NCBI GenBank assembly: GCA_037917675.1
Contig: JAVCBW010000009.1
Span: 1-34,259, forward strand
Source: Thermoproteota archaeon
Lineage (GTDB): Archaea; Korarchaeota; Korarchaeia; B14-G2
Direction: 5' to 3'
DNA length: 34,259 bases
Shown here: in pieces, positions 1,766 to 14,818 of the stretch
Position numbering within the stretch: the stretch's first letter is position 1
How the letters are laid out: each line of letters opens with the position of its first letter
The notes under the pieces: generated by a model
The model's database searches: none
What the model was told of the DNA's origin: nothing
What the model saw: the letters and a program-made list of their open reading frames with translations, nothing else
Made by a program: the position numbers and the translations under genes

Positions 1766-1800
1766 TATATAGGTTTACGTCTGTAGGGCTGTTGGAGGTG
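1766..1800 (+). promoter_or_regulatory. Putative TATA box and RBS of the pilus operon
   Basis: TATATA at 1766-1771; GGAGGTG at 1794-1800, 6 nt before GTG 1807. Confidence 0.45.
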
Positions 1801-1806
1801 ACTGAT

Positions 1807-2205
1807 GTGAGGAGTGGGATCAGTACTCTGGTTGTGACTGTTGTTTTGATGGTGGTGGGTGTGGCTGGGGCTCTGCTGGCCTATGGTGTGCTGAGGGGGC
1901 AGATAAGGCTTGCAGGGAGGAAGATGGCTGGTGTAGCTAGCGCAGCTCAAGTGGAGATCATAGGGCTTGACTCAAATGGGAATATTGTGGTGAAGAACAC
2001 TGGGACTACTGTGATACCTGATGGGAACTGGGAGGTTGTGGTTGATGGGCAGGTCGTAAACCAGGTTACTAGCCTAGGTAGGCTGGAGCCAGGTGAGACT
2101 CTAGGTTTAAGCCCAGGGGCCTTCACGTTCCAGGAGGGCATAACCTATGTTATAGAGGTTAGTGGGCCAGCTGGCGCGACAGCACAGTACGTCTATAGCC
2201 CATAG
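1807..2205 (+). CDS. Archaeal type IV pilin (probable major pilin)
   Basis: Class III signal MRSG|ISTLVVTVVLMVVGVAGALLAY; globular domain with VKNTG and LEPGET motifs typical of archaeal pilins; RBS supports GTG 1807. Confidence 0.88.
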   Translation: MRSGISTLVVTVVLMVVGVAGALLAYGVLRGQIRLAGRKMAGVASAAQVEIIGLDSNGNIVVKNTGTTVIPDGNWEVVVDGQVVNQVTSLGRLEPGETLGLSPGAFTFQEGITYVIEVSGPAGATAQYVYSP

Positions 2206-2215
2206 TGGTGCCATA

Positions 2216-2587
2216 ATGCAGACTACTGCCATAGTTGTCGCGCTGATGCTCTTGAGTGTAGCCTTAGCTGCAGCTCTCAGCCAGCCTATGAGGCTGATGG
2301 TAGCTAGGGTAGCTAAGTCTTCAACTAGGGTAGCTGCCAGAGTAGAGATAGCAGCATTCAGCCCAGATGGCCAGGTTACAGCCAGGAACCTAGGGCCTGA
2401 CACCATACCAGCTGGCACATGGCATGTCATCATAGATACAGAGGTCAGAGGTGAGGCTAGGCTCCAGGAGCTCAAGCCAGGAGAAGCAGTGACACTAGGC
2501 TTCCAGCCAGTAGACCCAACTACATCACACTTTGTTGAAGTCAGTGGGCCAGCTGGAGTCACTGGGCAAGCAGGCTGGACACCCTGA
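2216..2587 (+). CDS. Type IV pilin paralog (tandem duplicate of 1807-2205)
   Basis: Aligns with the upstream pilin (VEI..G.V..RNLG..IP.G.W.VIID..L.PGE..VEVSGPAG); hydrophobic N-terminal helix; ATG 2216 follows GGTG. Confidence 0.8.
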   Translation: MQTTAIVVALMLLSVALAAALSQPMRLMVARVAKSSTRVAARVEIAAFSPDGQVTARNLGPDTIPAGTWHVIIDTEVRGEARLQELKPGEAVTLGFQPVDPTTSHFVEVSGPAGVTGQAGWTP

Positions 2588-2666
2588 TGAAGGCATGGAG
2601 CAGCCTAGCTCCAGGGGGCAGAGCCCCGAAGCTGGGGCGCCCACCTGCTAGGGTGGTTGCTTGGAT

Positions 2667-3095
2667 ATGCGTGGAGCTGTGGGGCTGGCGATCCTGCTAG
2701 CTGCAGGCATAGCTGCTGCAGCATCGCTAGCTGGAGGCTTAGCTGAGAGGCTCTTCTCAGAGAAGCCTGACCTCACGAGCTTGGTGGCAGGAGACGTGGA
2801 CTCAAGCTGGGAGGCGATCCTAGCTAGCCTAAGTGACCCTAAGGTCAGGGAGTTCACATCGAGGCATCCTCAGGCAGAGTGCTTCCCTCATCCTCTGAAC
2901 TCGACGGAGCTCCAAGCCCTTAGGGAAGCCTACCCTGAAGTAGACTGGCCTCCCATCGTCTGGCAGGTGTTCTGGGACTCCTGGAGCCTCCAGCAGCTAG
3001 AGAGCAGCTATCCCAGTATACCACCTCACCCATACCTTGTAGCCTATGTTTCAGCAGGTGGTGAAGTCCTGTTGGTGGAGGAGCATGAGAGGTGA
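2667..3095 (+). CDS. Pilin-like / membrane-anchored hypothetical protein
   Basis: MRG|AVGLAILLAAGIAAAA class III-like N-terminus; lies inside the operon. Confidence 0.6.
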   Translation: MRGAVGLAILLAAGIAAAASLAGGLAERLFSEKPDLTSLVAGDVDSSWEAILASLSDPKVREFTSRHPQAECFPHPLNSTELQALREAYPEVDWPPIVWQVFWDSWSLQQLESSYPSIPPHPYLVAYVSAGGEVLLVEEHER

Positions 3096-3099
3096 GACT

Positions 3100-3900
3100 A
3101 TGCTTAGGAGAGGCTATGGAGTCGTTCTTACACTAGGCCTCCTAGCTACTCTAGCCATTGCAGCAGCTATCCTCACCTTAGTGCCCTCTGCCTCTAGGAG
3201 CGAGCCAGCAATATATGAGGGCTTCAGAGACGCAACACTCCAGCTTAAGCAAGCTGTCGAGGAGGCAGCTGGCAGCCAGGGGACAGTCATAGAAGCAGAG
3301 GAGGCGCTCAGGCAGACATGTCAAGCTGTGAACCAGACTCTAGTAGAGAGAGGGATGAAGCTTGAGGTTTTAGAGCTGAGTGTAGCAGGCCCAGCTAGGA
3401 CCATAACACTAGCTTACAGAGTGTGGTGTGGTGGAAGCTTCCTCCAGAGCACCCTACAGGCAGCTGGCTCAGGCTCTCTAGAGAGGCCTCTAGAGCTCTC
3501 GCTGACACCAGCATGGGCAAACTGGACATATAAGCTTGCAGGAGACACCATACTAGTTACACTACCATCTGGAGCTAAGGCATATGTCCTAGTGGGATAT
3601 GTGCTCCAGAACCTTGGAGCTGACACGCTAGCTGTCCTCCATGCTGACCCAGATGCTGTGTGGATAGAGGTAGACGGCTTCAGGTATGGGAGCCAGGAGG
3701 CATCAACATGGCTATCAGAAGGCGAGTCTAAGGAGGTAGTGGTCCTATGGCTTGTATCCCCAAGCTTGAGGTCAAGCATGCTTCAAGCATGGCCTGAGGG
3801 ATCAGCTCTAGCTGACACTGCCCTCGCCTTATGGGAGAGGCAGCTTAGGCAGCTGGCAGGAGAAGCTAGCCTGAGAGGTGAGCTGGAGGTGAGTGGTTGA
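3100..3900 (+). CDS. Minor pilin-like protein with extra C-terminal beta domain
   Basis: GAGGTG RBS then ATG 3100; MLRRG|YGVVLTLGLLATLAIAAAIL class III signal; helix then beta-rich domain (LQNLG motif). Confidence 0.7.
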   Translation: MLRRGYGVVLTLGLLATLAIAAAILTLVPSASRSEPAIYEGFRDATLQLKQAVEEAAGSQGTVIEAEEALRQTCQAVNQTLVERGMKLEVLELSVAGPARTITLAYRVWCGGSFLQSTLQAAGSGSLERPLELSLTPAWANWTYKLAGDTILVTLPSGAKAYVLVGYVLQNLGADTLAVLHADPDAVWIEVDGFRYGSQEASTWLSEGESKEVVVLWLVSPSLRSSMLQAWPEGSALADTALALWERQLRQLAGEASLRGELEVSG

Positions 3901-5483
3901 AGGCGAGGCTCTCAGGGATGCTAGCTCTGATGGCAGCAATCACGCTCACAATAGTGCCACTGCAGCATGCATACACCCTACCTGGGCTGCCTCCAGGCTA
4001 CAGAAGCATGCCACAGCCAGACCCTGGGACACAGGAGTGGCTTGAAGAGAACTATCGCAGCATCATTCCTGCTTTTCCTGCCAGTGATTACTGGCTACAG
4101 CCTCCTCCGCCAGGTGGCTGTGGTGTCCTTATAGTGCAGGCAGTGTCATCTCAGAAGCTACCATACTGCTTCTGGCATGTAGTCCTAGAGAAATATGATC
4201 CATGCATAGGCTGGTATACTCAAGAGATGACGGCTAAGACAGATGGGAGGAGCCTACCGAAGCCAGAGACGTGGCAGGAGGCAGCTCCAGCAGCTACTCT
4301 GACCCCCACAGTCACTATGACGAGGACTAGAGTCGTCAGGAAGACTATTGAGGAGACAGCTTGGTCCACGAGCACAGCTAGAGCTACGAGAGCTGTGAGA
4401 GCTACCATAGCTAAGACTGTAAGGACTACTGAGACACCACCTATACCGCCATCACCAGCCCCAAGGCTAGTCGATCTCTCATCTAGGTGCTGGGGCATGG
4501 AGGAGTGGCTCCTAGAGGCCACATCTGACATCTATAACGCGACTCTCAGGCTGGAGGTCAGTGGAGTAGAGTTGGAGTCAGGGAGGCAGCCTCCCTACGC
4601 TAGGAGCATAGAAGCCTACCTAGATGGGTATCCAATCCTACACATATACGCTAGGCAGCAAGTAGATAGGTGGGCTGAGGGCACAAGGAGGTGCATCAAG
4701 CTCACCTTAACCTACCATGCCATGGAGTATGGCAAGGACTCTAGTAGTAGGGTTGTAGCGAGGTATGTGGTTGAGGGGTGGGTTGATGAGCAGGCTAAGA
4801 GAGGGCATATCGAAGCTTGGAGAGAGGGCTCCATAGAGGGCGTATATGAGGCAACGCTGGGGAGCATAGCCAGGGGCCTCCATAGGCTCAGCTTCAGAGT
4901 CACAGGGCTATACTGGGAGCTCCCGGAAGGATGGGAGGACCTGACTGGAGGCCAGGAGTATGTCTATGGGAGGAAGATAGCTAAGGCTGATATCAGCTTC
5001 AAGCTGACTGGAGCATGGGTCCAGGAGCCAAAGCTGGAGAGGCTGGGGAGCTATGGCACAAGCCTCAGAGGAGAGGAGTGGATAAGAGAGGGGTGGCCTC
5101 TCAAGTATGGGGTCAAGAAGACCTTAAGCTATAGGCTCACTAGGAAGGTCATATACCTTGGAGAGGACACTGAGAAGAGCATTGAGAGAAAGAAGGTGGT
5201 TGAAGCCAGAGCTGAGAGGAGGTATCTTGGGAAGGAGGTGGAGGTCAGGAGGGATGAGAGCATCACAGTCAGGAGATACTATGACTCTCAGAGAAGACGC
5301 TGGATAGTCGAGTACACGAAGACCACTAGGATAACGAGGATAGTGACCCACAGGTGGCTGAAGCTAGTGACTGAGGTCACAACCTGGCATATAACAGTCT
5401 ACATCACGACGCTAGAGCGCTACAGAGTCTTGTGGAAGTGGGTTCCACGAGTCGAGGAGAGGTTCTGCTGGGGGGGTGGGTAG
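3897..5483 (+). CDS. Secreted hypothetical protein with Thr-rich stalk, Ig-like domain and very long predicted beta-hairpin
   Basis: N-terminal signal peptide (MKARLSGMLALMAAITLTIVPLQHA); TVTMTRT.. Thr-rich tract; Pro-free, beta-residue-rich ~110 aa C-terminal segment; overlaps both neighbours. Confidence 0.75.
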   Translation: MKARLSGMLALMAAITLTIVPLQHAYTLPGLPPGYRSMPQPDPGTQEWLEENYRSIIPAFPASDYWLQPPPPGGCGVLIVQAVSSQKLPYCFWHVVLEKYDPCIGWYTQEMTAKTDGRSLPKPETWQEAAPAATLTPTVTMTRTRVVRKTIEETAWSTSTARATRAVRATIAKTVRTTETPPIPPSPAPRLVDLSSRCWGMEEWLLEATSDIYNATLRLEVSGVELESGRQPPYARSIEAYLDGYPILHIYARQQVDRWAEGTRRCIKLTLTYHAMEYGKDSSSRVVARYVVEGWVDEQAKRGHIEAWREGSIEGVYEATLGSIARGLHRLSFRVTGLYWELPEGWEDLTGGQEYVYGRKIAKADISFKLTGAWVQEPKLERLGSYGTSLRGEEWIREGWPLKYGVKKTLSYRLTRKVIYLGEDTEKSIERKKVVEARAERRYLGKEVEVRRDESITVRRYYDSQRRRWIVEYTKTTRITRIVTHRWLKLVTEVTTWHITVYITTLERYRVLWKWVPRVEERFCWGGG

Positions 5484-7278
5484 CATGAAGCCTGGGAGAA
5501 AGCTAGGGCTCATGCTATGGGTGCCTGCCCTCCTCACCCCCACATTTTTTATGCTCACTGAGCTCACATTCACATGGAGCCAGCCTTGGGCTTCAGCCTC
5601 AGGTCTAGACCTCTATACCTGGTGGCTTGTAGACATATACCCAAATTGGACCATCAGGTATAGAGTCACATATCAGCTAGCAAGGTTCAACCTGAGAACT
5701 GGAAGCTACGCTCCAGCCCTAGAGCATGGTGAGCTTCTCGCAGAGGAGGCATCTAGGATCCTAGAGCTCCTCAAGATGGGTAAGTGGAGGGAGCTAGCTG
5801 AGCTCTATGAGCCAGTGTGGAGCGAGGGAGACTGGAGCAGCCCAGGATACGTGAGGCAGAGGGTGCTCAGAGCTATCTCAGCCTACCTGATGTCTATGGG
5901 GGCTGCCCCAATGTACTATACCTCAGCCTTCACTAGGCCTAGAGCCTCAGCTAGCGAGCACACCTGGCGCGCTCACATGGAGGTTGAGGAAGTTAAAGGC
6001 ATATACGTGGACAGGAGCTATCTCGAGAGGCACGTGCGCTTCAATGAAGCCTCAGTGAGCTCTGAGAACGCCTCCTTCACCCTAGACTGCAGCTTCTACA
6101 TCTATGCCTCACCATACTTCCCATACATGAGGAGGTATGTGGAAGGAGCTCCTGGATCTATGGGGGTAAGCAGTCAGGCAGAGGCTACAGTGTTCTCTCT
6201 GTGGCTTCTCCACCCAGATGGTAGAGCCTCGCCAATAGAGGGGCCTATACACCACCTTGAACTCAGGCTGCATGGAGGCTTGAAGCTAGTGGAGTATAGG
6301 CTCTCCTGGATATACCCCTGGTCATTCAGGATGCTACCTAGCCAGCCTACTGGAGAGCCAGATGAGGGTGAGCTGGCTACGCAGCAGGAGTGCTGGCTTC
6401 TGTTCTCACCTAGCTACATCAAGCCAGAGGAGCCCACTAGGCTGGAGCTGAGTGTGTGGAGAGCTGAAGCTACAGGGTGGAGCCTCACCATAGATCCTAG
6501 AGGGAGAGGCTGGGGGGTTGTGCTAGCTACAGTAGGAGCATGGGGCAGGGTCTATGCTTCACCTAATGCAGTAGAGGTCGCCATAAGGTTCCCTTGGGCA
6601 CCAGGGTGGCTTGAACCACTCAACATCCTAAATGAGGAGTGGGCTCTAGGCTTTAAGGCTATAGCTGGAGCCGGAGACACTGAGGCCCTGAGGCTCCTAA
6701 AAGAGACCCTAAAGCTAGCTGAGAACGCTACGAGCAGAGTGCTCCTCGGAGGCCCGCTCAGAAACCCTGGGTCAGCTCAGCTCCTCGAGAAGACACGTCG
6801 CCTCTGCACTGAGATCATAGAGTACAGGCTAGACGAGAGGGAGGTGGAGCTCATCCTGCCCCTATGGGACACGTCTTTCAGAACTGACTTCAGGAGGAGA
6901 GGGCACCTGCATAGAGACTACTGCCTGATAGCTCTCACTGGAGAGTACACTTGCCCTCACGCCATGACAGATAGGCTGCCATCTCAAGCTGAAGTGCTGC
7001 TCTTAGCCTACACCCTGGGCTTCCAGAGCTGCTACAGGCGCACCCTCCTCATATGGGGGAACACAAGATATGGCACACTAGCAGGAGTGTTCTGGCTCAG
7101 CCAGAGGCCATGGAGACACATCAGCTTCCCAGCCTCTATCATAGTCCTAGAGTGGACTGACCTAAACGAGAATAGCATTCCAGATGAAGCAGACAGGTAT
7201 AGGGTGGTATACCCTAGCATCATGTGTGAGCTTGAAGCTGGCAGGTGGGCTAGCAGCCTGCTGAGAGAAGGTGGCTGA
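5476..7278 (+). CDS. Exported protein with C-terminal S-layer-type domain
   Basis: N-terminal hydrophobic segment; C-terminal DYCLI...LLIWGNTRYGTLAG...IIVLEWTDLNENSIPDEAD resembles the G-x-[TD]-R-x-GT-x-A module of Thermococcales/Methanococcales S-layer-associated proteins. Confidence 0.6.
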   Translation: MGSMKPGRKLGLMLWVPALLTPTFFMLTELTFTWSQPWASASGLDLYTWWLVDIYPNWTIRYRVTYQLARFNLRTGSYAPALEHGELLAEEASRILELLKMGKWRELAELYEPVWSEGDWSSPGYVRQRVLRAISAYLMSMGAAPMYYTSAFTRPRASASEHTWRAHMEVEEVKGIYVDRSYLERHVRFNEASVSSENASFTLDCSFYIYASPYFPYMRRYVEGAPGSMGVSSQAEATVFSLWLLHPDGRASPIEGPIHHLELRLHGGLKLVEYRLSWIYPWSFRMLPSQPTGEPDEGELATQQECWLLFSPSYIKPEEPTRLELSVWRAEATGWSLTIDPRGRGWGVVLATVGAWGRVYASPNAVEVAIRFPWAPGWLEPLNILNEEWALGFKAIAGAGDTEALRLLKETLKLAENATSRVLLGGPLRNPGSAQLLEKTRRLCTEIIEYRLDEREVELILPLWDTSFRTDFRRRGHLHRDYCLIALTGEYTCPHAMTDRLPSQAEVLLLAYTLGFQSCYRRTLLIWGNTRYGTLAGVFWLSQRPWRHISFPASIIVLEWTDLNENSIPDEADRYRVVYPSIMCELEAGRWASSLLREGG

Positions 7279-7295
7279 GCTGGAGGTGAGGGTGA

Positions 7296-7808
7296 GTGGA
7301 GTCTATTGCAGCTGAGGGCATGCTGCTCCTGGTAGCAGTAGGGGCTCTGGTAGCAGCCGTCAAGCTATATGCTCCCATAGTCTCCTCGAGAATACAGGAG
7401 GTGAGGCTCAGGGAAGCTGAGAGCCTGAGCCTAGAGCTCCAGCAGATGCTTGAGGCTGCCATAAAGCAGGGCCCTAACACAACAGTCTACATGTCTCTTG
7501 CCCTCCCAGAGGGATGCATCCTAGTAGGGAACTCAACAGCACTGAAGCTCATCTTGCTCAAGCCTCCTAGGTATGAGGATGCCACCTTGCTGTACAGGAG
7601 TGAGCTGACTGAGCTCTGGGTTGAGCCTCATGGCACCTTCCTTGCTTTCGCTGTGAAGCTCTCTCCTGAGCTGGTGGGGGAGGGCTGGAGCCTGAGCTTC
7701 AGCCCTCTACCTGGCATCAGTGGCCCATGCCTCTCTAGAGCTGGAGGCTCTCTTGAGGCTTGGGCTAGGAGCCTAGGTCAGGTGGTGGAGGTTGGCTGGG
7801 GCAGCTAG
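7296..7808 (+). CDS. Minor pilin-like protein
   Basis: SIAAEGMLLLVAVGALVAA hydrophobic helix with early Glu, long helix, then QGPNTTVYMSLALPEG.I.V, a pattern typical of archaeal minor pilins. Confidence 0.65.
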   Translation: MESIAAEGMLLLVAVGALVAAVKLYAPIVSSRIQEVRLREAESLSLELQQMLEAAIKQGPNTTVYMSLALPEGCILVGNSTALKLILLKPPRYEDATLLYRSELTELWVEPHGTFLAFAVKLSPELVGEGWSLSFSPLPGISGPCLSRAGGSLEAWARSLGQVVEVGWGS

Positions 7809-9222
7809 GGTGCTTTCAGCCCTCACACTCATGCTGCTCACAGCCCTATCAGGCTGCTTAGGCCAGAGGCAAGCCTCTGAGCCTACACCTACATCTGAGG
7901 CTACCTCTACACGTGAAGCTGAAGCTACACCTACCATGACACCTACATCTGCCCCTGTCCCTACTCCTACATCCATCACAGCTACGCCACCTCCATCACC
8001 TACGCCATCAGCTACACCATCTGCTTCCGATGTAGCTGTGTACTCTGTCAGCTGCCCTAGGAGGGCTAGGATAGGAGACGTCTTAGAGGTTGAGGTGAAC
8101 ACGTCAGCTGACATGGTGCTGGTTGAGCTCATGGGCCGTAACTACACGGCTGAGCTCAGAGGCTGCGTTTTCAAGGCCTACGTGAGCCTAGCTAAGGCTC
8201 CTGAGAGGGAGGCTACCATGAGAGTCTACTGCATTAGAGGTAGGGAAGCTGAGGTCAGGGAGCTTAAGCTCTTCGCATATGACATCCCAGAGGTGGAGCT
8301 GAGGGTTGAGCCCCAGAAGCTCACTTTCAGCGAGATCATCATAGAGAAGTATAGGAGGTATCTCGTCAGAGGTCTCCAGCTAGAGGAGGTGAGAGCTGAG
8401 GCTGTGGTCGAAGATAGCTCACAGATACTGGCTGTAACCCTATACTATGGAGCCGATAGCACAGGAACTTTGAGTAGAGGTGTCAGCATGGAGCTCTCAG
8501 AGGGAGGTACATGGAGCTGTACTCTCCCCTGGGAGCTTGGGCTAGAGGCTCTGAGAGCTGGGCTAGCTGATGATGGAGTACACCTTAGAGCTGTGGCAGA
8601 GGACAGGTGGCGTAACAGGGGTGTAGCTGAAGCTAGGCTCATGGTGGAGGTCAGGGAGCTAGTGATAAGGGGAGTCTCCTTCCATGAGCAGATCCATGAG
8701 AAGCCATGGTGCATGACAGCCTGCATCCAGATGCTCCTAGACTACTGGAGCTGTAGCCCCCTCCCATCTCAGGAGGAGATAGCAGAGCATGGTGGGTGGG
8801 GGGAGCCCACATATGGCTTCATATCCTACCTGAGGTCTCTAGGGTTCACCCTAGAGGAGTACAGGGTGAGCATGCAGGAGCAGAAGGTCGCTACAGCTAG
8901 GAGGCTCCTAAGCCAAGGCTACCCTCTGATAGCTGGAGTATTCATCCCAGATCTAGGAGGGCACGCCATAGTCCTATATGGCTATGACAATAGCAGAAAG
9001 AAATTCTACACTCTAGATCCAGCAGGGTGGATGAGAGAGGTGAGCTATGCAGAGTTCAGGCTCAGATGCTACCTGCTATATGTGCTGAAGCCCATCAGCA
9101 TGGGTCTAGGATGCCACCTGACAGGCCATCCAGCCCTCCAAGAGGAAGCTACATGTAAGCTAGAGACTCTGGCGGAGAGGCCAGGATTCTGGTGGAGGTG
9201 GCCTAGATGCATAGAGCCATGA
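7792..9222 (+). CDS. Lipoprotein C39-like (papain-fold) cysteine peptidase with Pro/Thr linker and Ig-like domains
   Basis: Lipobox ALSGC; PTPTS-rich linker; catalytic motifs FHEQ..PWCMTACIQMLLDYW, SQEEIA, GYPLIA, GHAIVLYGYD and YTLDPA. Confidence 0.85.
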   Translation: MAGAARVLSALTLMLLTALSGCLGQRQASEPTPTSEATSTREAEATPTMTPTSAPVPTPTSITATPPPSPTPSATPSASDVAVYSVSCPRRARIGDVLEVEVNTSADMVLVELMGRNYTAELRGCVFKAYVSLAKAPEREATMRVYCIRGREAEVRELKLFAYDIPEVELRVEPQKLTFSEIIIEKYRRYLVRGLQLEEVRAEAVVEDSSQILAVTLYYGADSTGTLSRGVSMELSEGGTWSCTLPWELGLEALRAGLADDGVHLRAVAEDRWRNRGVAEARLMVEVRELVIRGVSFHEQIHEKPWCMTACIQMLLDYWSCSPLPSQEEIAEHGGWGEPTYGFISYLRSLGFTLEEYRVSMQEQKVATARRLLSQGYPLIAGVFIPDLGGHAIVLYGYDNSRKKFYTLDPAGWMREVSYAEFRLRCYLLYVLKPISMGLGCHLTGHPALQEEATCKLETLAERPGFWWRWPRCIEP

Positions 9223-9386
9223 GCTTCCTCATCTCTATGAGCATAGTGGTTGGGGTAGCAGCTTATGGCCTCAGAGAGGTAGGGAGGAGAGCTGAAGTAA
9301 GGCAGTTGGCTCTGCAGCCTCTAGCTGAGTCCATATTGAAGAAGCTCCTCGAGACTCCTGGAAACTGGTCTAGGATGCCACCTGAC
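9103..9386 (+). repeat. Exact 20-bp direct repeat GGTCTAGGATGCCACCTGAC (9103-9122 and 9367-9386)
   Basis: Read directly from the sequence; copies are 264 bp apart and each is followed closely by AGGCC. Confidence 0.9.
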
Positions 9387-9683
9387 CCAGGCCTCTGCAT
9401 TGAGGGAGAGGAGGGAGCACTCTCATATGTGATAGACCAGGTGAAGCTTAGGAGGCTAGCTTCAATGAGTGAGGAAGAGCTTGAAGAGGCCTTCGGGCTA
9501 AAGGGGAAGCATGCTAGGATAGCAGTATACGTCTGGAGCCAGCAGCTAGGGAGGTTCCAGCTCTATGCTGAGGCTGGAGCTAGGGTCAGGAGGGCTGGGG
9601 CCTCAGCTAGGAGCCCAGCTGCCATAGGCCTAGGTGAGGAGCTCAGGCAGGCTCTTGTTGAGGTAGAGGTGTGGGGTGGCTGA
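9207..9683 (+). CDS. Minor pilin-like protein
   Basis: MHRA|MSFLISMSIVVGV class III-like signal; LLETPGNW....PGL motif seen in archaeal pilus-locus minor pilins. Confidence 0.7.
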   Translation: MHRAMSFLISMSIVVGVAAYGLREVGRRAEVRQLALQPLAESILKKLLETPGNWSRMPPDPGLCIEGEEGALSYVIDQVKLRRLASMSEEELEEAFGLKGKHARIAVYVWSQQLGRFQLYAEAGARVRRAGASARSPAAIGLGEELRQALVEVEVWGG

Positions 9684-9685
9684 GC

Positions 9686-10120
9686 ATGCTGGAGCTGGCT
9701 AAGCTCAGGCGTGGAGGCCTTTATAAGCCTCTATTGGCTTCTATGCTTGTGCTAGCTGGTCTTGGAGCCCTGGCTGCCCTGGCTGGGCTTAGGCCTGCCC
9801 TCGTGAGGCTCAGGCTGAGGAGGCAGGCTCAGCAGGCTGCTGAGCTCATTGCAAGAGAGATCCAGTTGGTGACTGAAGCTCACAGGATTGGAGCCAGCTT
9901 AGGCAGGAGGTACATCACGCTACCGAGGTACCTAGTAGACATCATAGAGGTGAATGAGACCCACGTGTGGGCTAGGGCCTCATCAGGAGCTCTATGGGCT
10001 TCTGCTGCAGTCGAGCATGGCTCCCAGCTGGTTAAGGGCAGCTATAGGATCTCACCTGGTGCAGTGGTCCTCTGGATTGAGGGAGATGAGGTGAGAGTAG
10101 GGAACCTTAGAGGTGGGTGA
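9686..10120 (+). CDS. Minor pilin-like protein
   Basis: KLRRG|GLYKPLLASMLVLAGLGALA; AAELIAREIQLV...G..YITLP pattern. Confidence 0.65.
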   Translation: MLELAKLRRGGLYKPLLASMLVLAGLGALAALAGLRPALVRLRLRRQAQQAAELIAREIQLVTEAHRIGASLGRRYITLPRYLVDIIEVNETHVWARASSGALWASAAVEHGSQLVKGSYRISPGAVVLWIEGDEVRVGNLRGG

Positions 10121-11072
10121 GTTGGATCTGGCTCCAGCTGAAGCCTTAATTGCATCAGTGATGGTAGCTGTCATGCTACTAGCTGGGCTCTCTGCCATGG
10201 AGCCGAGGTGGCATGGGAGCAAGCAGCTTGCTCTAGGGCTCGCTGGATCCTTAACACCGCTTGCTACAGAGTACCTGGAGTCTGACATGGAGCTTGAGGA
10301 CCTCAGGAGCAGAGCTGGAAGATGGCTTCAGCCATATGAGATGGAGATGAGGCTTGAGGGCGGGGTTAAGCTAGTCTACATGCTCGGGGGCTTCAGGTGT
10401 GAGCTTGAGGCTAAGCCTAGCCCCAGGAGGGTGGAGGCTAACGCCATGCTGCCAGTCCAGCTTCCGAGAGGACAGCTGAAGGGCTTCGCCATACCATATA
10501 GGAGAGCCTTCTACGCTAGAGACTGGCTTGAAGTCTACCTAGCCTTCATGTTTGAGAGAGGCGAGCCAGCTCCACCTGCCCTCAAGGTTGAGGCTACCTT
10601 ACTTGACAGTAGAGGCAGACCAGTAGCTATGCTTGGGGCTACCCCAGTCGACATGAGCTATACCCTCTATAGAGTTAGGTGGCTCATACCAGAGGAGCTG
10701 AGCCCTGGGAGGTATGAGCTCAGATCCACTTACACTGGCCCTGGTGGCCTCTGGGCTGAGGCTTCAGCTGAGCTCATGGTGGCAGCTGGCATGCCACCTA
10801 GCCTGAGTGAGCTTATCCCAGTGAGATGGTGGTGGAGGCTTGGAGAGAAGTGTGAGCTAACCGTGACGAAGCCTGGTGTAGCATTCAGCGTGAAGCATTC
10901 GCTTAAGGGCCGCTATGTATCAGGGAGAGCTGAGGGCACAGTAGTAGGCTTCAGCTTTACAAGCCCAGTTAACCTCGCTCCTGGCGTCTATGTGGTGGAG
11001 GCAGCAGGCTGCAGAGTTCCCGTAGTGCTCCTCCCCTTCCCAGCTTACGTGCTGATTGAGGTGGGTAGTTGA
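10113..11072 (+). CDS. Pilin-like protein with Ig-like C-terminal domains
   Basis: EALIASVMVAVMLL N-terminal helix; LLDSRGRPV..W.IP..L.PGRYEL and LAPGVYVVEA Ig-fold motifs. Confidence 0.62.
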   Translation: MGELDLAPAEALIASVMVAVMLLAGLSAMEPRWHGSKQLALGLAGSLTPLATEYLESDMELEDLRSRAGRWLQPYEMEMRLEGGVKLVYMLGGFRCELEAKPSPRRVEANAMLPVQLPRGQLKGFAIPYRRAFYARDWLEVYLAFMFERGEPAPPALKVEATLLDSRGRPVAMLGATPVDMSYTLYRVRWLIPEELSPGRYELRSTYTGPGGLWAEASAELMVAAGMPPSLSELIPVRWWWRLGEKCELTVTKPGVAFSVKHSLKGRYVSGRAEGTVVGFSFTSPVNLAPGVYVVEAAGCRVPVVLLPFPAYVLIEVGS

Positions 11073-11977
11073 GAGCTAAGCTAGGTCTACTTGCTGCAGC
11101 CACCTCAGCTGTCCTCCTATATTGGGGTATAGTGTGCTTCCATGCTGGGCTCATGCTGCTTAACACACCAGTTGAGCTCGAGGATAGCTGGGTGAGCTAT
11201 GCTAGCAGCAGGATCCCAAGTGAGTTGCTTGAGCACATTGAGAAGCTGAGCTTCGACAGCGCAGTTGACGTGCTTAACCAAGCTGCGCTAGTTTACCTGG
11301 TAATGGCTTTCTTCCCTGCTGCTATAGCAGCTTCATTCAAACATGAGCTGTACAGGGGAGAGGACAGGGAGAGGGAGCTGCTCTACATAGCTCTGCTGCT
11401 ACCTGCTGCCATAGCAGCTGCCTTTCCTCTCCCAGAGTCCTACTGGTCTAGAGCTAGGCTGCTCCCCTGGCCTATCCCAGCTGTCACAGCTGTGCTCCTT
11501 GCATGCGGGCTCAAGCCTAAGGCCTATCCTCTCCCACAGCTGATTGCAGCAACACCAGCTGTCTGGCTGCTAGCGCAGCAGCTGCTTACAGGAGATCAGA
11601 GCGTAGTGATGGCAGCATACGTAGTGGCAGTGGCTCTCATAGCTAGCGCTATGCTAGCTGAAGCCTCTACTAGACAGCACTCGAGTAGGATAGTAGGCTG
11701 GCTTATTGCAGTAGCTCTACCTCTCATGCTAGCGCTACTAGTGAGCTGGCTGCTTAAGCTCCCCTGTCTCCCAGCGTCCATTTCGGCACCTAAGCATGTT
11801 GCAGCAGGAGCTCCTGCTGCAGCCATCACTACAGCAATGGCAGCGATCCTATCGAGAGAAGGAGGGGAGGAGGTGACGATAGGGGAGCATAGAGTGAGAG
11901 GGCTCAGGCTGCTTACTGAGCTACTGGGAGTGGAGGTGTCGCTAGCTGAAGCTGAGGAGAAGCAGAGGCAGAAATAG
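11069..11977 (+). CDS. Multi-pass membrane protein of unknown function
   Basis: Roughly 8 hydrophobic segments; 4-nt overlap (TTGA) with the upstream gene. Confidence 0.7.
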   Translation: MRAKLGLLAAATSAVLLYWGIVCFHAGLMLLNTPVELEDSWVSYASSRIPSELLEHIEKLSFDSAVDVLNQAALVYLVMAFFPAAIAASFKHELYRGEDRERELLYIALLLPAAIAAAFPLPESYWSRARLLPWPIPAVTAVLLACGLKPKAYPLPQLIAATPAVWLLAQQLLTGDQSVVMAAYVVAVALIASAMLAEASTRQHSSRIVGWLIAVALPLMLALLVSWLLKLPCLPASISAPKHVAAGAPAAAITTAMAAILSREGGEEVTIGEHRVRGLRLLTELLGVEVSLAEAEEKQRQK

Positions 11978-12110
11978 AAGGGCAGATGAGCTATACCAAG
12001 CTTCCTTCGAGCCCACCAGTAGAGGGCTTGAGCTCATTGAGGGCTGTGCTTGGAGAACTGTAGGCAGAGAGTATAGGCTAGTAGAGATACCGCCGCCTCC
12101 AAGTGGGCTG

Positions 12111-13298
12111 ATGAGAGAGCTGCAGAGCTACATAGAGGGGAGGCTCGGCTCTAAGCCTGTGCGTGAGCTCATAAAGGAGGCTGTAGCCAGAGCTGTGAAG
12201 GCTAGAGGCTGGAATCCACCTAAGCAGCTCCTCAGGGCAGCAGCATACCACCTCCTAAAGGACATGGAGGGGCTTGGGAAGCTTACTCCCCTGCTCTGGG
12301 ACCCTGAGATAGAGGACATCAAGCTCCCTAGCAGAGGGGATAGGAGGCTATGGGTCATGCTCTCAGGGCTAACTGGCTGGCTTCCCACCAACGTGGAGCT
12401 AACTGAGGATGAGGCCAGGGAGCTTGTGCTTAAGATGGCTGAGCTATGTGGGAAGCAGGTGAGCCTCGCGAGCCCACGCCTCGAAGGCAAGCTCCCTAGT
12501 GGAGAGAGGGTGCAGGCAGCCCTGGGATATGAGATCTCAGAGGGTGGTACAGCATTTGTCATAAGGAAGTATGTGAGGCGTAAGCTCACTCTATGGGACT
12601 GGGTGAGGCAGCATGCAATAACACCTGAGGCAGCAGCTTACCTCTGGCTTCTCGTAGAGGAGGGGATATCAGGGCTCATAGCTGGGGAGACAGGGTCAGG
12701 TAAGACGACATTCCTCTCAAGCTTGCTCAGGCTCATCCCATGGGACAAGTCTATAATAACTGTAGAGGACACCCCAGAGATAGCACTTGAACACAGGAAC
12801 TGGATCCAGCTCGTCACTAGGCCTGGCTCAGGGTCAACTAGAGAGATAGGGTTCACTGAGCTCATGCGTGACGTGCTCAGGATGCGTCCAGACTACTGCA
12901 TCATAGGAGAGTCTAGGGGAGAGGAGACGAGGATCCTAGCTCAGTTCATAGCAATGGGCCGCACTGGCTTTGCTACCTTCCACGCGATCTCAGTCCAAGA
13001 TGCCTTGAGGAGGCTCCTAAGCCATCCTCTCAGCCTTACTCCAGAGCAGGCAGCCATGTTCAGAGTCATAGTGCTGCTGAGAATCCATGAGGGCAGGAGG
13101 CTTGTAGCTGAGATAGCTGAGACAGAGGCTGAAAACATGCTTGTGAAAGCCAGGAGCCTGTTTAAGCTTAGGGGAGGGAGGCTTGAGGGGAGAGTTGAGG
13201 ACAGCAGAGTCCTAGCGAGAGTAGCTGAGAGAAGAGGATGTAGCATGAGAGAGGTGCTCAGGGATTGGGAGGAGAAGGTGAGGAGGCTCAGGAGCTGA
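12111..13298 (+). CDS. Type II/IV secretion ATPase (VirB11/CpaF/FlaI family); true start probably upstream (11946 or 11986)
   Basis: LTPLLWDPEIEDI, Walker A GETGSGKTT, TVEDTPE, Walker B LRMRPDYCIIGESRGEE, ATFHA; frame is open back to 11946. Confidence 0.95.
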   Translation: MRELQSYIEGRLGSKPVRELIKEAVARAVKARGWNPPKQLLRAAAYHLLKDMEGLGKLTPLLWDPEIEDIKLPSRGDRRLWVMLSGLTGWLPTNVELTEDEARELVLKMAELCGKQVSLASPRLEGKLPSGERVQAALGYEISEGGTAFVIRKYVRRKLTLWDWVRQHAITPEAAAYLWLLVEEGISGLIAGETGSGKTTFLSSLLRLIPWDKSIITVEDTPEIALEHRNWIQLVTRPGSGSTREIGFTELMRDVLRMRPDYCIIGESRGEETRILAQFIAMGRTGFATFHAISVQDALRRLLSHPLSLTPEQAAMFRVIVLLRIHEGRRLVAEIAETEAENMLVKARSLFKLRGGRLEGRVEDSRVLARVAERRGCSMREVLRDWEEKVRRLRS

Positions 13299-14818
13299 TC
13301 CCTAAGCCTAGGCTGGCATACAGGATTGCCTGTAGACTCTTCCCTGAGAGCCAGCTGGCTAGGAGCCTAGCTGACAAGATGCCTGAGGATGCTGCTAAGG
13401 AGCTGCTGTCCACAGCTCTAGCTGCAGCCTCACTTGCAGCTGCAGTAGGCTACATGGCGAGAGCGCCTCTACCACTGGCGATGCTTCCACTCATAGCTGT
13501 CCCAGTGAGCCTGCTAGCACCCAGGTTAGAGGCTAGGTCTCTAGGTAAGGAGCTTGACCACAAGCTCTGGCATGTACTGGGAGCGATCTGGATCCTGTTC
13601 ACAGCTGGAAAGAACCTCTCCACTTCACTCGAGGCTGCAGCTAGAACCTCAGGAGGAAAAGCGAGGAGGTGGCTGAGCAGAGCAGCTGCTCACGTGAGGC
13701 ATCTAGGGCCTATGAGAGGGCTTAAGCTAAGCATAGACTTATGCCCATCTAGGAGGCTGAGGCAGCTACTGGAGAGGCTTCTAGACTACTATGTTGGGAG
13801 AGGGGAGGTGACCATAGATATGCTGAGGCGTGAGCTAGAGGAGCAGAGCACTCTTATAGAAGAGCAGCTTAAAGCTGCAGCGAGAAGACACATGCTTCTC
13901 CTCACAACATACACCATAGTGATGGTTGTCTTCCCAGTTGTGCTTGCTCTAGTATATGTGTTCAAGGCTGTAGCTGAGCTAGCTCAGCTAGACCTGATGC
14001 CGTTCATCATGGTGGTAGTGCTCCCTGCACCAGCTTTCATAGCCTTGTTCAGAGGGCAACCCAAGCTCTATAGGCTACCGAGGAAGCTTGTAGCTGTAAG
14101 CTGGGCTATAGCTTTAGCAGCTAGCAGCATGATGCTGGCAGCAGGCCTGAGCCTAGAGGTAGCAGGTCTAGCACTAGGCTTATGCTACCTTGTGGTAGCT
14201 AGAGAAGAGGAGAAGCTCCACCAGCAGGCAATAGAGCTACCTAAGCTCCTAGAGGACATCAGCGCTGAGCTGGCTGGAGGTAGGACGCTGAGCAAAGCTG
14301 TCCTCAGGGTGCAGGCAGAGTACAGCGGACTAAAAGAGGCGCTCAAGAGGATTAAAGCTCAGGCAGAGCTCTCAGCACCCTACAGCAGGACGCTTAAGGC
14401 AATGCAGAGAGCAGTGAGGCACGTGGAGACATCAAGCCTCCTAAGGCTGCTTGAGGAAGCTCTGAACTCCGGCGCAAGCCTACAGGAGGCTTTGAGGAGC
14501 ACATCAGAGTTCGGGAGGAGGCTCAGAGTAATATTCCTGAGGACAGAGGCAGAGAAAAAGCAGCACTACATCATAGTAGTAGCATGCTTCACCATAGCAG
14601 TAGCAAGCATCACACTAATCCAAGCACACCTAGGACTACAGGAGCTAATCCCACAGCAGGCAGAAGAGCTAGCACAGACACTAGACAAGCTTATAGCAGC
14701 ACAGGCGATAGCAGTAGGCCTAGTACTAGGCACAGCGAGAACAGGACACCTGACCTCAGGGCTAAGAGAGGTAGGCATCCTATCTGCCATAACCCTACTA
14801 GCACAGATGCTAGCCTGA
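13265..14818 (+). CDS. Type II secretion system F-family platform protein (TadC/FlaJ-like, two T2SSF domains)
   Basis: Follows the ATPase; two modules (TAGKNLSTSL..CPSRRLRQLL and ELPKLLEDISAELAGGRTLSKA..ALNSGASL) each followed by TM pairs. Confidence 0.88.
   Translation: MGGEGEEAQELIPKPRLAYRIACRLFPESQLARSLADKMPEDAAKELLSTALAAASLAAAVGYMARAPLPLAMLPLIAVPVSLLAPRLEARSLGKELDHKLWHVLGAIWILFTAGKNLSTSLEAAARTSGGKARRWLSRAAAHVRHLGPMRGLKLSIDLCPSRRLRQLLERLLDYYVGRGEVTIDMLRRELEEQSTLIEEQLKAAARRHMLLLTTYTIVMVVFPVVLALVYVFKAVAELAQLDLMPFIMVVVLPAPAFIALFRGQPKLYRLPRKLVAVSWAIALAASSMMLAAGLSLEVAGLALGLCYLVVAREEEKLHQQAIELPKLLEDISAELAGGRTLSKAVLRVQAEYSGLKEALKRIKAQAELSAPYSRTLKAMQRAVRHVETSSLLRLLEEALNSGASLQEALRSTSEFGRRLRVIFLRTEAEKKQHYIIVVACFTIAVASITLIQAHLGLQELIPQQAEELAQTLDKLIAAQAIAVGLVLGTARTGHLTSGLREVGILSAITLLAQMLA

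Follow-up and report, generated by a model that had tools for sequence, protein, structure and literature searches.

An archaeal gene cluster, by its gene content a type IV filament locus, encodes a protein of 528 amino acids (aa) whose C-terminal segment is supported as all-beta and is built around a long central hairpin. The cluster lies in a 34,259-nucleotide stretch of DNA from a Thermoproteota archaeon of the Korarchaeia (assembly GCA_037917675.1, contig JAVCBW010000009.1), called the window here. Coordinates are window positions, and residue numbers are those of the 528-aa open reading frame (ORF), 3897..5483 on the forward strand. For the arrangement of the strands around the hairpin, we tentatively favor a model-based reading in which long strands fold back into a sheet or small barrel, with a conserved aromatic and cationic face lying on the protein's central domain or on a partner. 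One uninterrupted ribbon of two strands, whatever form it might take, is a more doubtful account of the same residues.

The ribbon was the proposal of a first-pass annotation, which had read positions 5115-5448, encoding residues 407-517 (111 residues), as two in-register strands of about 55 residues each, paired outward from a central turn. AlphaFold was run on the full-length protein and on fragment 396-528, with an alignment of two sequences. Both runs place strands at 446-463 and 468-485. Their ends sum to 931, which is the register proposed for the inner part of the ribbon, so a hairpin does sit at the turn that had been picked out. It has the best local predicted local distance difference test score (pLDDT) in each run, 46-50 in the full-length model and 66-79 in the fragment. 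The turn, residues 464-467, has Pro at 464 in the single known orthologue. A crude pair score, which rewards apolar-apolar contacts, salt bridges, and cation-aromatic pairs and penalizes like charges, ranks register 931 first of 17 when the two orthologues are scored together. The central hairpin is thus the supported part of the proposed structure.

The sequence features behind the ribbon proposal hold. A Pro-free stretch covers residues 402-516 (115 aa), P517 being the last residue of the span. The only two Gly residues in the span, G422 and G445, each stand in a YLG motif, and the motif tyrosines (Y420, Y443) are 23 residues apart. YYDSQRRRW occupies 461-469, around the span midpoint at 462, and on the return side R508-Y509 follows R486-W487 at a distance of 22. 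On either side of the turn, the stretch enclosed by the motifs is exactly 20 residues long (423-442 and 488-507). With the turn centered between 465 and 466, the inner segments are also 20 + 20 residues (446-465 and 466-485). The register then steps from i + j = 931 to 930 to 929, losing one residue at each LG, and is internally consistent. The choice of motifs was selective, since RW also occurs at 468 and RY also occurs at 442 and 460.

We gauged these features against chance by shuffling the whole protein 20,000 times. A Pro-free run of at least 115 residues arises in 207 of the 20,000 shuffles, and a run of at least 71 residues lacking both Pro and Gly (446-516) in 36. A run of at least 52 residues without Pro, Gly, Asn, Asp, or Ser (465-516) arises in 4. 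The same measures taken on the orthologue give 5168, 555, and 133 of 20,000, making it weaker on all three. Residues 407-517 are rich in Thr, Val, Ile, Tyr, and Trp and strongly basic, with a net charge of +14 that rises to +26 in the orthologue. Conserved between the two are both YLG motifs, YYD, H485-R486-W487, and Y509-R510. The claim that each LG faces an Arg fares less evenly. The register does place R486 and R508 there, but R508 is Leu in the orthologue, which leaves one Arg of the two conserved. The 23-residue spacing on the forward side also raised the idea of a duplicated 23-residue unit. This was rejected: an offset of 23 gives 11 and 9 identities, which is background, and no offset from 2 to 69 stands out.

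Conservation between the orthologues alternates from residue to residue. In 423-443, 7 of the 11 odd positions are identical and 1 of the 10 even ones; in 469-485 the figures are 5 of 9 and 0 of 8. This period of two argues for strands with one constrained face, not for helices. A helix at 423-442, where the window sequence is rich in Glu, Lys, Arg, and Ala, was rejected on this ground and because the orthologue has a beta-type sequence there. When the residues are assigned to faces by the proposed parity, face A holds 11 of the 13 aromatics (12 of 17 in the orthologue). It is identical at 33 of 54 positions, against 17 of 50 on face B (Fisher p = 0.0065). Aromatics and Lys, Arg, and His are concentrated on this conserved face, and all five Trp residues of 469-515 occupy odd positions.

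Beyond the hairpin, the models are far less definite. The full-length run has a mean pLDDT of 33.8 and a predicted template modeling score (pTM) of 0.26, and is unusable overall. Its strands are 410-419, 430-443, 446-463, 468-485, 488-504, and 510-519, with 488-504 at pLDDT below 50. The fragment does better, with a best model of mean pLDDT 61.8 and pTM 0.50; the other four models lie at 41.9-50.2. Strands in this best model are 404-420, 429-443, 446-463, 468-485, 500-506, and 509-525. Residues 486-499, which should pair with strand 429-443 in the ribbon, are coil with pLDDT below 50. When 21 registers are compared by the pair score, 930, which governs this middle third (423-442 with 488-507), does not stand out. 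Good scores go to 931 and 929, and register 1015, which would join 488-506 and 509-525 in a hairpin of their own, does as well as any. The 55 + 55 ribbon is supported in part, as an all-beta segment with its hairpin at the expected place and register; its extension through the middle third is neither demonstrated nor contradicted.

Structural neighbors of the module were sought as a hint of shape. Foldseek returned 0 matches in the PDB at E <= 0.001. Its weak rows are GFP-type barrels and OmpX, and the MPEG-1 pore, at E 0.35, is noise. VIA-align was run against 48,161 chains; no chain reached Z 5, the highest value being 4.2, and the stated noise level for unmatched models is a best Z of typically 7-8. 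Over 68-106 aligned residues, its weak neighbors are 2o2a (Z 4.2), KdgM (Z 4.1), and secretins (Z 3.4-4.0), all below noise. The secretin rows are XcpQ (Z 4.0), 8jvb (Z 3.7), and RcpA (Z 3.4, root-mean-square deviation 2.8 over 68 residues). The pTM of 0.50 together with the weak matches to compact proteins and barrels suggests a folded-back sheet. A four-copy prediction of 396-528 scored 0.00 and 0.05 (mark 0.42), was run without controls, and speaks neither for nor against binding.

On this basis we propose the following architecture. Residues ~404-525 would be the C-terminal module of a Sec-exported, genus-restricted accessory protein occupying a variable slot of the pilus locus. Its strands would be unusually long (17-21 residues) and nucleated by the central hairpin (446-463/468-485). 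Face A would carry most aromatics along with conserved Arg, Lys, and aliphatic residues, leaving the other face polar and free to vary. Reversals of the chain would fall at G422 and G445 of the YLG motifs and, on the return side, near 486-487 and 507-508, where the breaks would be non-canonical. The outcome would be a compact antiparallel sheet of five or six strands, or a small barrel, ~6 nm tall. Its conserved face may lie against the central beta domain of the same protein or against a partner, for which the pilus, a sister subunit, and an attachment target are candidates. The module would then serve as an extracellular binding or adhesion part of the pilus system, rather than as a free 18-nm ribbon. 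If so, the protein is a lineage-specific pilus accessory or adhesin of unusual composition, and of local interest only.

Several observations weigh against this fold-back. The models behind it are weak, as the scores above indicate, and come from a two-sequence alignment. Strand pairing was read from the strand lists, pTM, and weak matches rather than from coordinates. The return half lacks Pro, Gly, Asn, Asp, and Ser over 465-516, and the orthologue lacks them over ~477-516. A meander would therefore need two tight turns without a usual turn former. At the sites where those turns would fall, H-R-W-L and L-E-R-Y (V-K-L-Y), neither orthologue has a strong turn-forming residue. A continuous return strand would explain the missing turn formers more simply. 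Gly, moreover, occurs on the forward side only. The ends of the fragment-model strands sum to exactly the proposed registers, 931 for the hairpin and 929 for the first and last strands (404-420 and 509-525, at both ends). Conservation is weakly mirror-symmetric about 465-467, not significantly so. Tested segment by segment, hydrophobic parity reaches significance only in 509-516 of the orthologue (p = 0.027). Finally, the binding or adhesion role is proposed from genomic context.

Parity of conservation does not settle the matter. Among 64 assignments of residues to faces, a meander with two-residue turns throughout comes first (33 of 53 identical on one face against 17 of 51 on the other) and the ribbon second, a negligible difference. 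The two cannot be told apart in this way because their assignments differ only at 487-507. This segment carries no signal: conservation is 4 of 11 against 4 of 10, and the hydrophobicity differences are -0.05 and 0.00. Concordance of conservation across paired positions gives phi values of 0.14 for the ribbon pairs, 0.14-0.36 for the single registers 929-933, and -0.02 for the meander pair list. The ribbon value is not significant, with 9 of 57 circular shifts reaching it. Compact beta domains are the more common outcome, and this has to be weighed against the missing turn formers on the return side and a model that is weak and apparently folded back.

The continuous ribbon in its simplest form would pair 407-465 with 466-522 into a rigid stalk of ~16-18 nm, as a monomer or dimer. 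The LG bulges would lie opposite R486 and residue 508 (Arg, or Leu in the orthologue), each YLG tyrosine would stack on W487 or Y509, and a second copy or the pilus would probably cover the aromatic face. We regard such a stalk as unlikely, although it accommodates much of what was found. The motif spacings, the rarity of the return half, the one-sided placement of Gly, and the strand-end sums all agree with it, as does the clustering of aromatics on one face. The conserved blocks RRYLG and HRWLK would face each other, as would YLGE and YRV. The full-length model even has a strand, 488-504, opposite 430-443, at low confidence. The stalk has against it the unpaired middle third of the better model, the unremarkable register 930, the non-conserved R508, and a concordance and parity that do not single it out. 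If free, it would also expose ~27 apolar or aromatic pairs, which would be unusual for a two-stranded ribbon that no partner covers. Were it true, the ribbon would rank with the longest two-stranded beta structures known within one chain and would be a simple natural rigid-rod design from a presumed thermophile.

Rods made of a single beta-sheet layer do exist, OspA being one. Another comparison is with the E-G5 rods of SasG, which, in the available part of the source (PMC4458895), form an elongated, strand-aligned projecting adhesin without a classical hydrophobic core. The SasG domains described there are three-stranded with a collagen-like center and recur as tandem repeats, whereas the module of the 528-aa protein is without repeats and would have at most two strands in the stalk.

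A still less probable elaboration places the ribbons of several copies side by side in a long, narrow beta-barrel or needle, which could give the pilus system a conduit or a spike across the cell envelope. We give equally little credence to the fuller version, in which ~50 + 50 residues (16-18 nm), with two Gly bulges clamped by aromatic stacking, self-associate by way of their conserved aromatic and cationic face into a thin needle or a long barrel that passes through or opens the envelope next to the pilus. The amphipathic face pattern runs along the whole length, the weak neighbors include secretins and a porin, and the gene belongs to a type IV filament locus. All neighbor Z values are below the VIA-align noise level, however. 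At the tip stands the strongly charged YYDSQRRRW, and apolar residues line one face over the full length instead of forming a membrane-width belt. The gene is also missing from the orthologous loci of other genera and therefore cannot be this system's core conduit. In the available text of a 2026 survey of archaeal filament loci (PMC13705601), the passage of filaments across the surface layer (S-layer) is treated as unresolved, and a needle would be a candidate answer for some of them. It would be a beta-only architecture without a solved counterpart.

Two kinds of known protein bear on this elaboration. Beta pore-forming toxins such as the anthrax protective antigen, in the accessible portion of PMC5666345, have very long paired strands arranged as hairpins and would parallel the idea of stabilization by oligomerizing. 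The 528-aa protein differs from them in its charged rather than apolar tip, its full-length apolar face, its archaeal host, and its pilus locus. No homology to these toxins was found in Pfam, NCBIfam, PDB sequences, or a HMMER scan. The stem length and strand counts of such toxins are taken here as general background. Secretins, of bacterial type II and III secretion and of type IV pilus and Tad systems, share predicted long-stranded antiparallel sheets, a filament-system locus, and the weak structural match. Unlike them, the 528-aa protein reaches a Z of only 3.4-4.0 in that match, below noise, and its gene is not conserved with the locus. It has no Pfam match to a secretin or N-domain at E <= 0.01.

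Finally, we hold it improbable that the module is a basic beta sheet that binds a polyanion (extracellular DNA, an acidic glycan, or an envelope polymer) and perhaps folds fully only on binding. Its net charge, the aromatics and basic residues on the conserved face, and the low model confidence without a partner would fit, and DNA uptake or exchange is a function of some type IV filament systems. No match to a nucleic-acid- or carbohydrate-binding family was found in Pfam, NCBIfam, or PDB sequences, and a high content of Arg/Lys, Ile/Val, and Tyr/Trp is also typical of thermophile proteins.

The gene itself is real, being syntenic in a sister species and under constraint (overall ratio of nonsynonymous to synonymous substitution rates, dN/dS, 0.27; dS is close to saturation). 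It begins at a TTG that overlaps the stop codon of the ORF upstream. The product has no Pfam match (E <= 0.01) and no NCBIfam match, a profile search of PDB sequences gave 0 matches at E <= 1, and the ESM Atlas yielded nothing usable, whether queried with the whole protein or with residues 190-528. Among 5.8 billion clusters, a word-index search recovered only the protein itself and one 525-aa protein, ~54% identical, from the sister species. A full HMMER scan of 1.84 billion representatives found the same 525-aa protein and nothing else. In genome searches, both genomes available for the order carry the gene, and of 43 genomes in the phylum 2 do, the window's own being counted each time; a metagenome scan added two loci, both of the same sister species. 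All searches thus return one sister-species protein, leaving only two distinct orthologues. They align without gaps over residues 404-528. In the sister contig the upstream 144-aa and 284-aa ORFs are kept, at 69-71% identity. For an orphan with a single orthologue, sequence-based methods can offer little more, whichever reading of the module holds.

Constraint is uneven along the protein. The module evolves faster than the central domain (45% identity, dN/dS 0.43), and the values for other regions are listed in Table 1. Sec export is our inference from the N-terminus, where K2 and R4 precede a hydrophobic stretch. The leader reads R-L-S-G, ~13 hydrophobic residues, and P-L-Q-H-A. This differs from the class III pilin leader, in which a basic residue and Gly or Ala directly precede a hydrophobic helix of ~20 residues. 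The orthologue, at 33% identity over residues 1-30, keeps the pattern (R-I-A-G ... A-Q-P-A), which by eye also has a Sec-type rather than a class III layout. Within residues 138-180, the low-confidence full-length model predicts strands 139-152 and 166-179, a 14 + 14 hairpin. The strongest period-2 conservation of the whole protein falls here, in windows starting at 166-171, and a Pro-rich linker, PPIPPSPAP (181-189), follows. Five of the six Cys residues are conserved in the orthologue: C75 (4119-4121), C91 (4167-4169), C103 (4203-4205), C198 (4488-4490), and C524 (5466-5468). A disulfide through C524 could possibly tie the tail to the body of the exported protein and, if present, would fix the end of the last strand.

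Table 1. Features of the 528-aa gene and of its locus; positions are in the window, except in the last row, which refers to related loci (L numbers).
Feature	Position	Strand	Remarks
Type IV filament locus	1792..14818	+	Pilin-like ORFs through ATPase and platform protein
Pilin-like ORFs	1792-2205, 2162-2587	+	Conserved in related loci
Genus-specific ORFs	2661-3095, 3046-3900, 3897-5483, 5476-7278	+	
528-aa ORF	3897..5483	+	Genus-restricted accessory protein of type IV filament locus
Residues 1-25, Sec-type signal-peptide-like N-terminus	3897..3971	+	Read by eye
Residues 138-180, Pro/Gly-free Thr/Arg-rich stretch (43 residues)	4308..4436	+	Second, shorter predicted hairpin
Residues 190-400	4464..5096	+	Best-conserved part, 66% identity, dN/dS 0.17 (191-400); predicted mostly beta
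Residues 404-525, long-stranded all-beta module, basic, aromatic-rich	5106..5471	+	Strands of the fragment model
Y420-L421-G422, first YLG	5154..5162	+	Conserved; bulge if ribbon, two-residue turn if meander
Y443-L444-G445, second YLG	5223..5231	+	Conserved; strand break here in both models
Residues 446-485, central hairpin, 18 + 18 residues	5232..5351	+	Only supported part of the proposed ribbon
S464-Q465-R466-R467, turn of central hairpin	5286..5297	+	P-K-I-K in orthologue
H485-R486-W487, return side	5349..5357	+	Invariant block; mirror position of second YLG
R508-Y509	5418..5423	+	Mirror position of first YLG; Y509 conserved, R508 Leu in orthologue
Residues 517-528 (PRVEERFCWGGG), tail with C524	5445..5480	+	Near-invariant; 91% identity, dN/dS 0.03 over 518-528
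ORF following 5476-7278	7296-7808	+	
C39-like peptidase protein, 476 aa	7792-9222	+	PF13529, 5.9e-09
Small ORFs with N-terminal hydrophobic segment	9207-11072	+	
ORF between small ORFs and ATPase	11069-11977	+	
ATPase, T2SSE type	12111-13298	+	PF00437, 1.3e-28, 100.2 bits (cut-off 24.9)
Platform protein, T2SSF/UpsF type	13265-14818	+	PF00482, 2e-09, 37.9 bits (cut-off 25.2)
Unrelated slot proteins in related loci	L016 5575-7059; L017 5599-6648; L019 5464-6456; L020 4823-6358 and 6389-8323	-	

The identity of the locus follows from its machinery genes. The ATPase also has strong NCBIfam matches to FlaI/TadA-type models, below the equivalog cut-offs, and the platform protein matches UpsF at 4.8e-09, below the UpsF cut-off. 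The N-termini of ORFs 1792-2205, 2162-2587, and several more consist of a short charged segment, then Gly, then a long hydrophobic stretch; no Pfam or NCBIfam pilin family model matched the pilin-like ORFs. We compared the locus with its orthologues in six genomes, all of other genera, where the ATPases share 45-49% identity with that of the window. By blastp, the two pilins, the 170-, 158-, and 149-aa ORFs, and the ATPase have counterparts there. The 319-aa ORF has a weak one in one of the six loci only, and the 144-, 284-, 528-, 600-, 476-, and 302-aa ORFs have none in the six. No Pro/Gly-free module of ~120 residues was seen in these loci either. In four of the six, the place beside the distal pilin gene is taken by unrelated proteins, 330-644 aa long and with a hydrophobic segment at the N-terminus. 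With no counterpart of its own and unrelated large proteins at the same position, the 528-aa ORF is therefore lineage-specific, and the accessory slot that it occupies is variable.

The accessory proteins and envelope passage of archaeal type IV filaments are poorly understood. The available text of PMC13705601 describes diverse adhesin-like, Ig (immunoglobulin)-fold, and beta-helical accessory proteins in such loci. The 528-aa protein resembles the variable adhesin-like proteins of the system 4-type loci in that text: its gene lies between pilin-like and ATPase/platform genes, it has a putative N-terminal export signal, it is beta-rich and lineage-specific, and its slot is shared with unrelated large proteins. 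It differs in having no similarity to them or to the arCOG-derived families compared, and in its Sec-type-looking leader. It belongs to no described family and adds a lineage-specific member to a kind of system already known; from this locus context its most likely role is that of an extracellular accessory or adhesion component of the pilus system. As a separate observation, the slot beside the distal pilin gene looks like a hot spot for the exchange of accessory or adhesin genes.

Downstream, the 476-aa protein combines a lipobox-like L-S-G-C close to the N-terminus with a Thr/Pro-rich linker and, at the C-terminus, a C39-like peptidase domain of the papain fold. The C-terminal GGG of the 528-aa protein was considered as a double-glycine signal for this peptidase. 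This was rejected, as a GG, GS, or SG ending occurs in at least seven ORFs of the operon (3' ends at 3900, 5483, 7278, 7808, 9683, 10120, and 11072) and in many ORFs of the related loci, and the codons have another use. At 5470-5480 the Gly codons overlap the G-rich ribosome-binding site before the ATG of the next gene at 5485, which in part accounts for the conservation of GGG. Most adjoining ORFs of the operon overlap by a few bases, and with the ribosome-binding site over the Gly codons (5470-5487) the arrangement looks like tight translational coupling.

A scan of genome contigs with the ATPase as query returned the sister species alone. The window's own genome (G000) encodes a second ATPase of the same superfamily, 37% identical, on contig C41 (20211-21140, forward strand). 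At least two systems of the type IV filament kind are therefore present in this organism.

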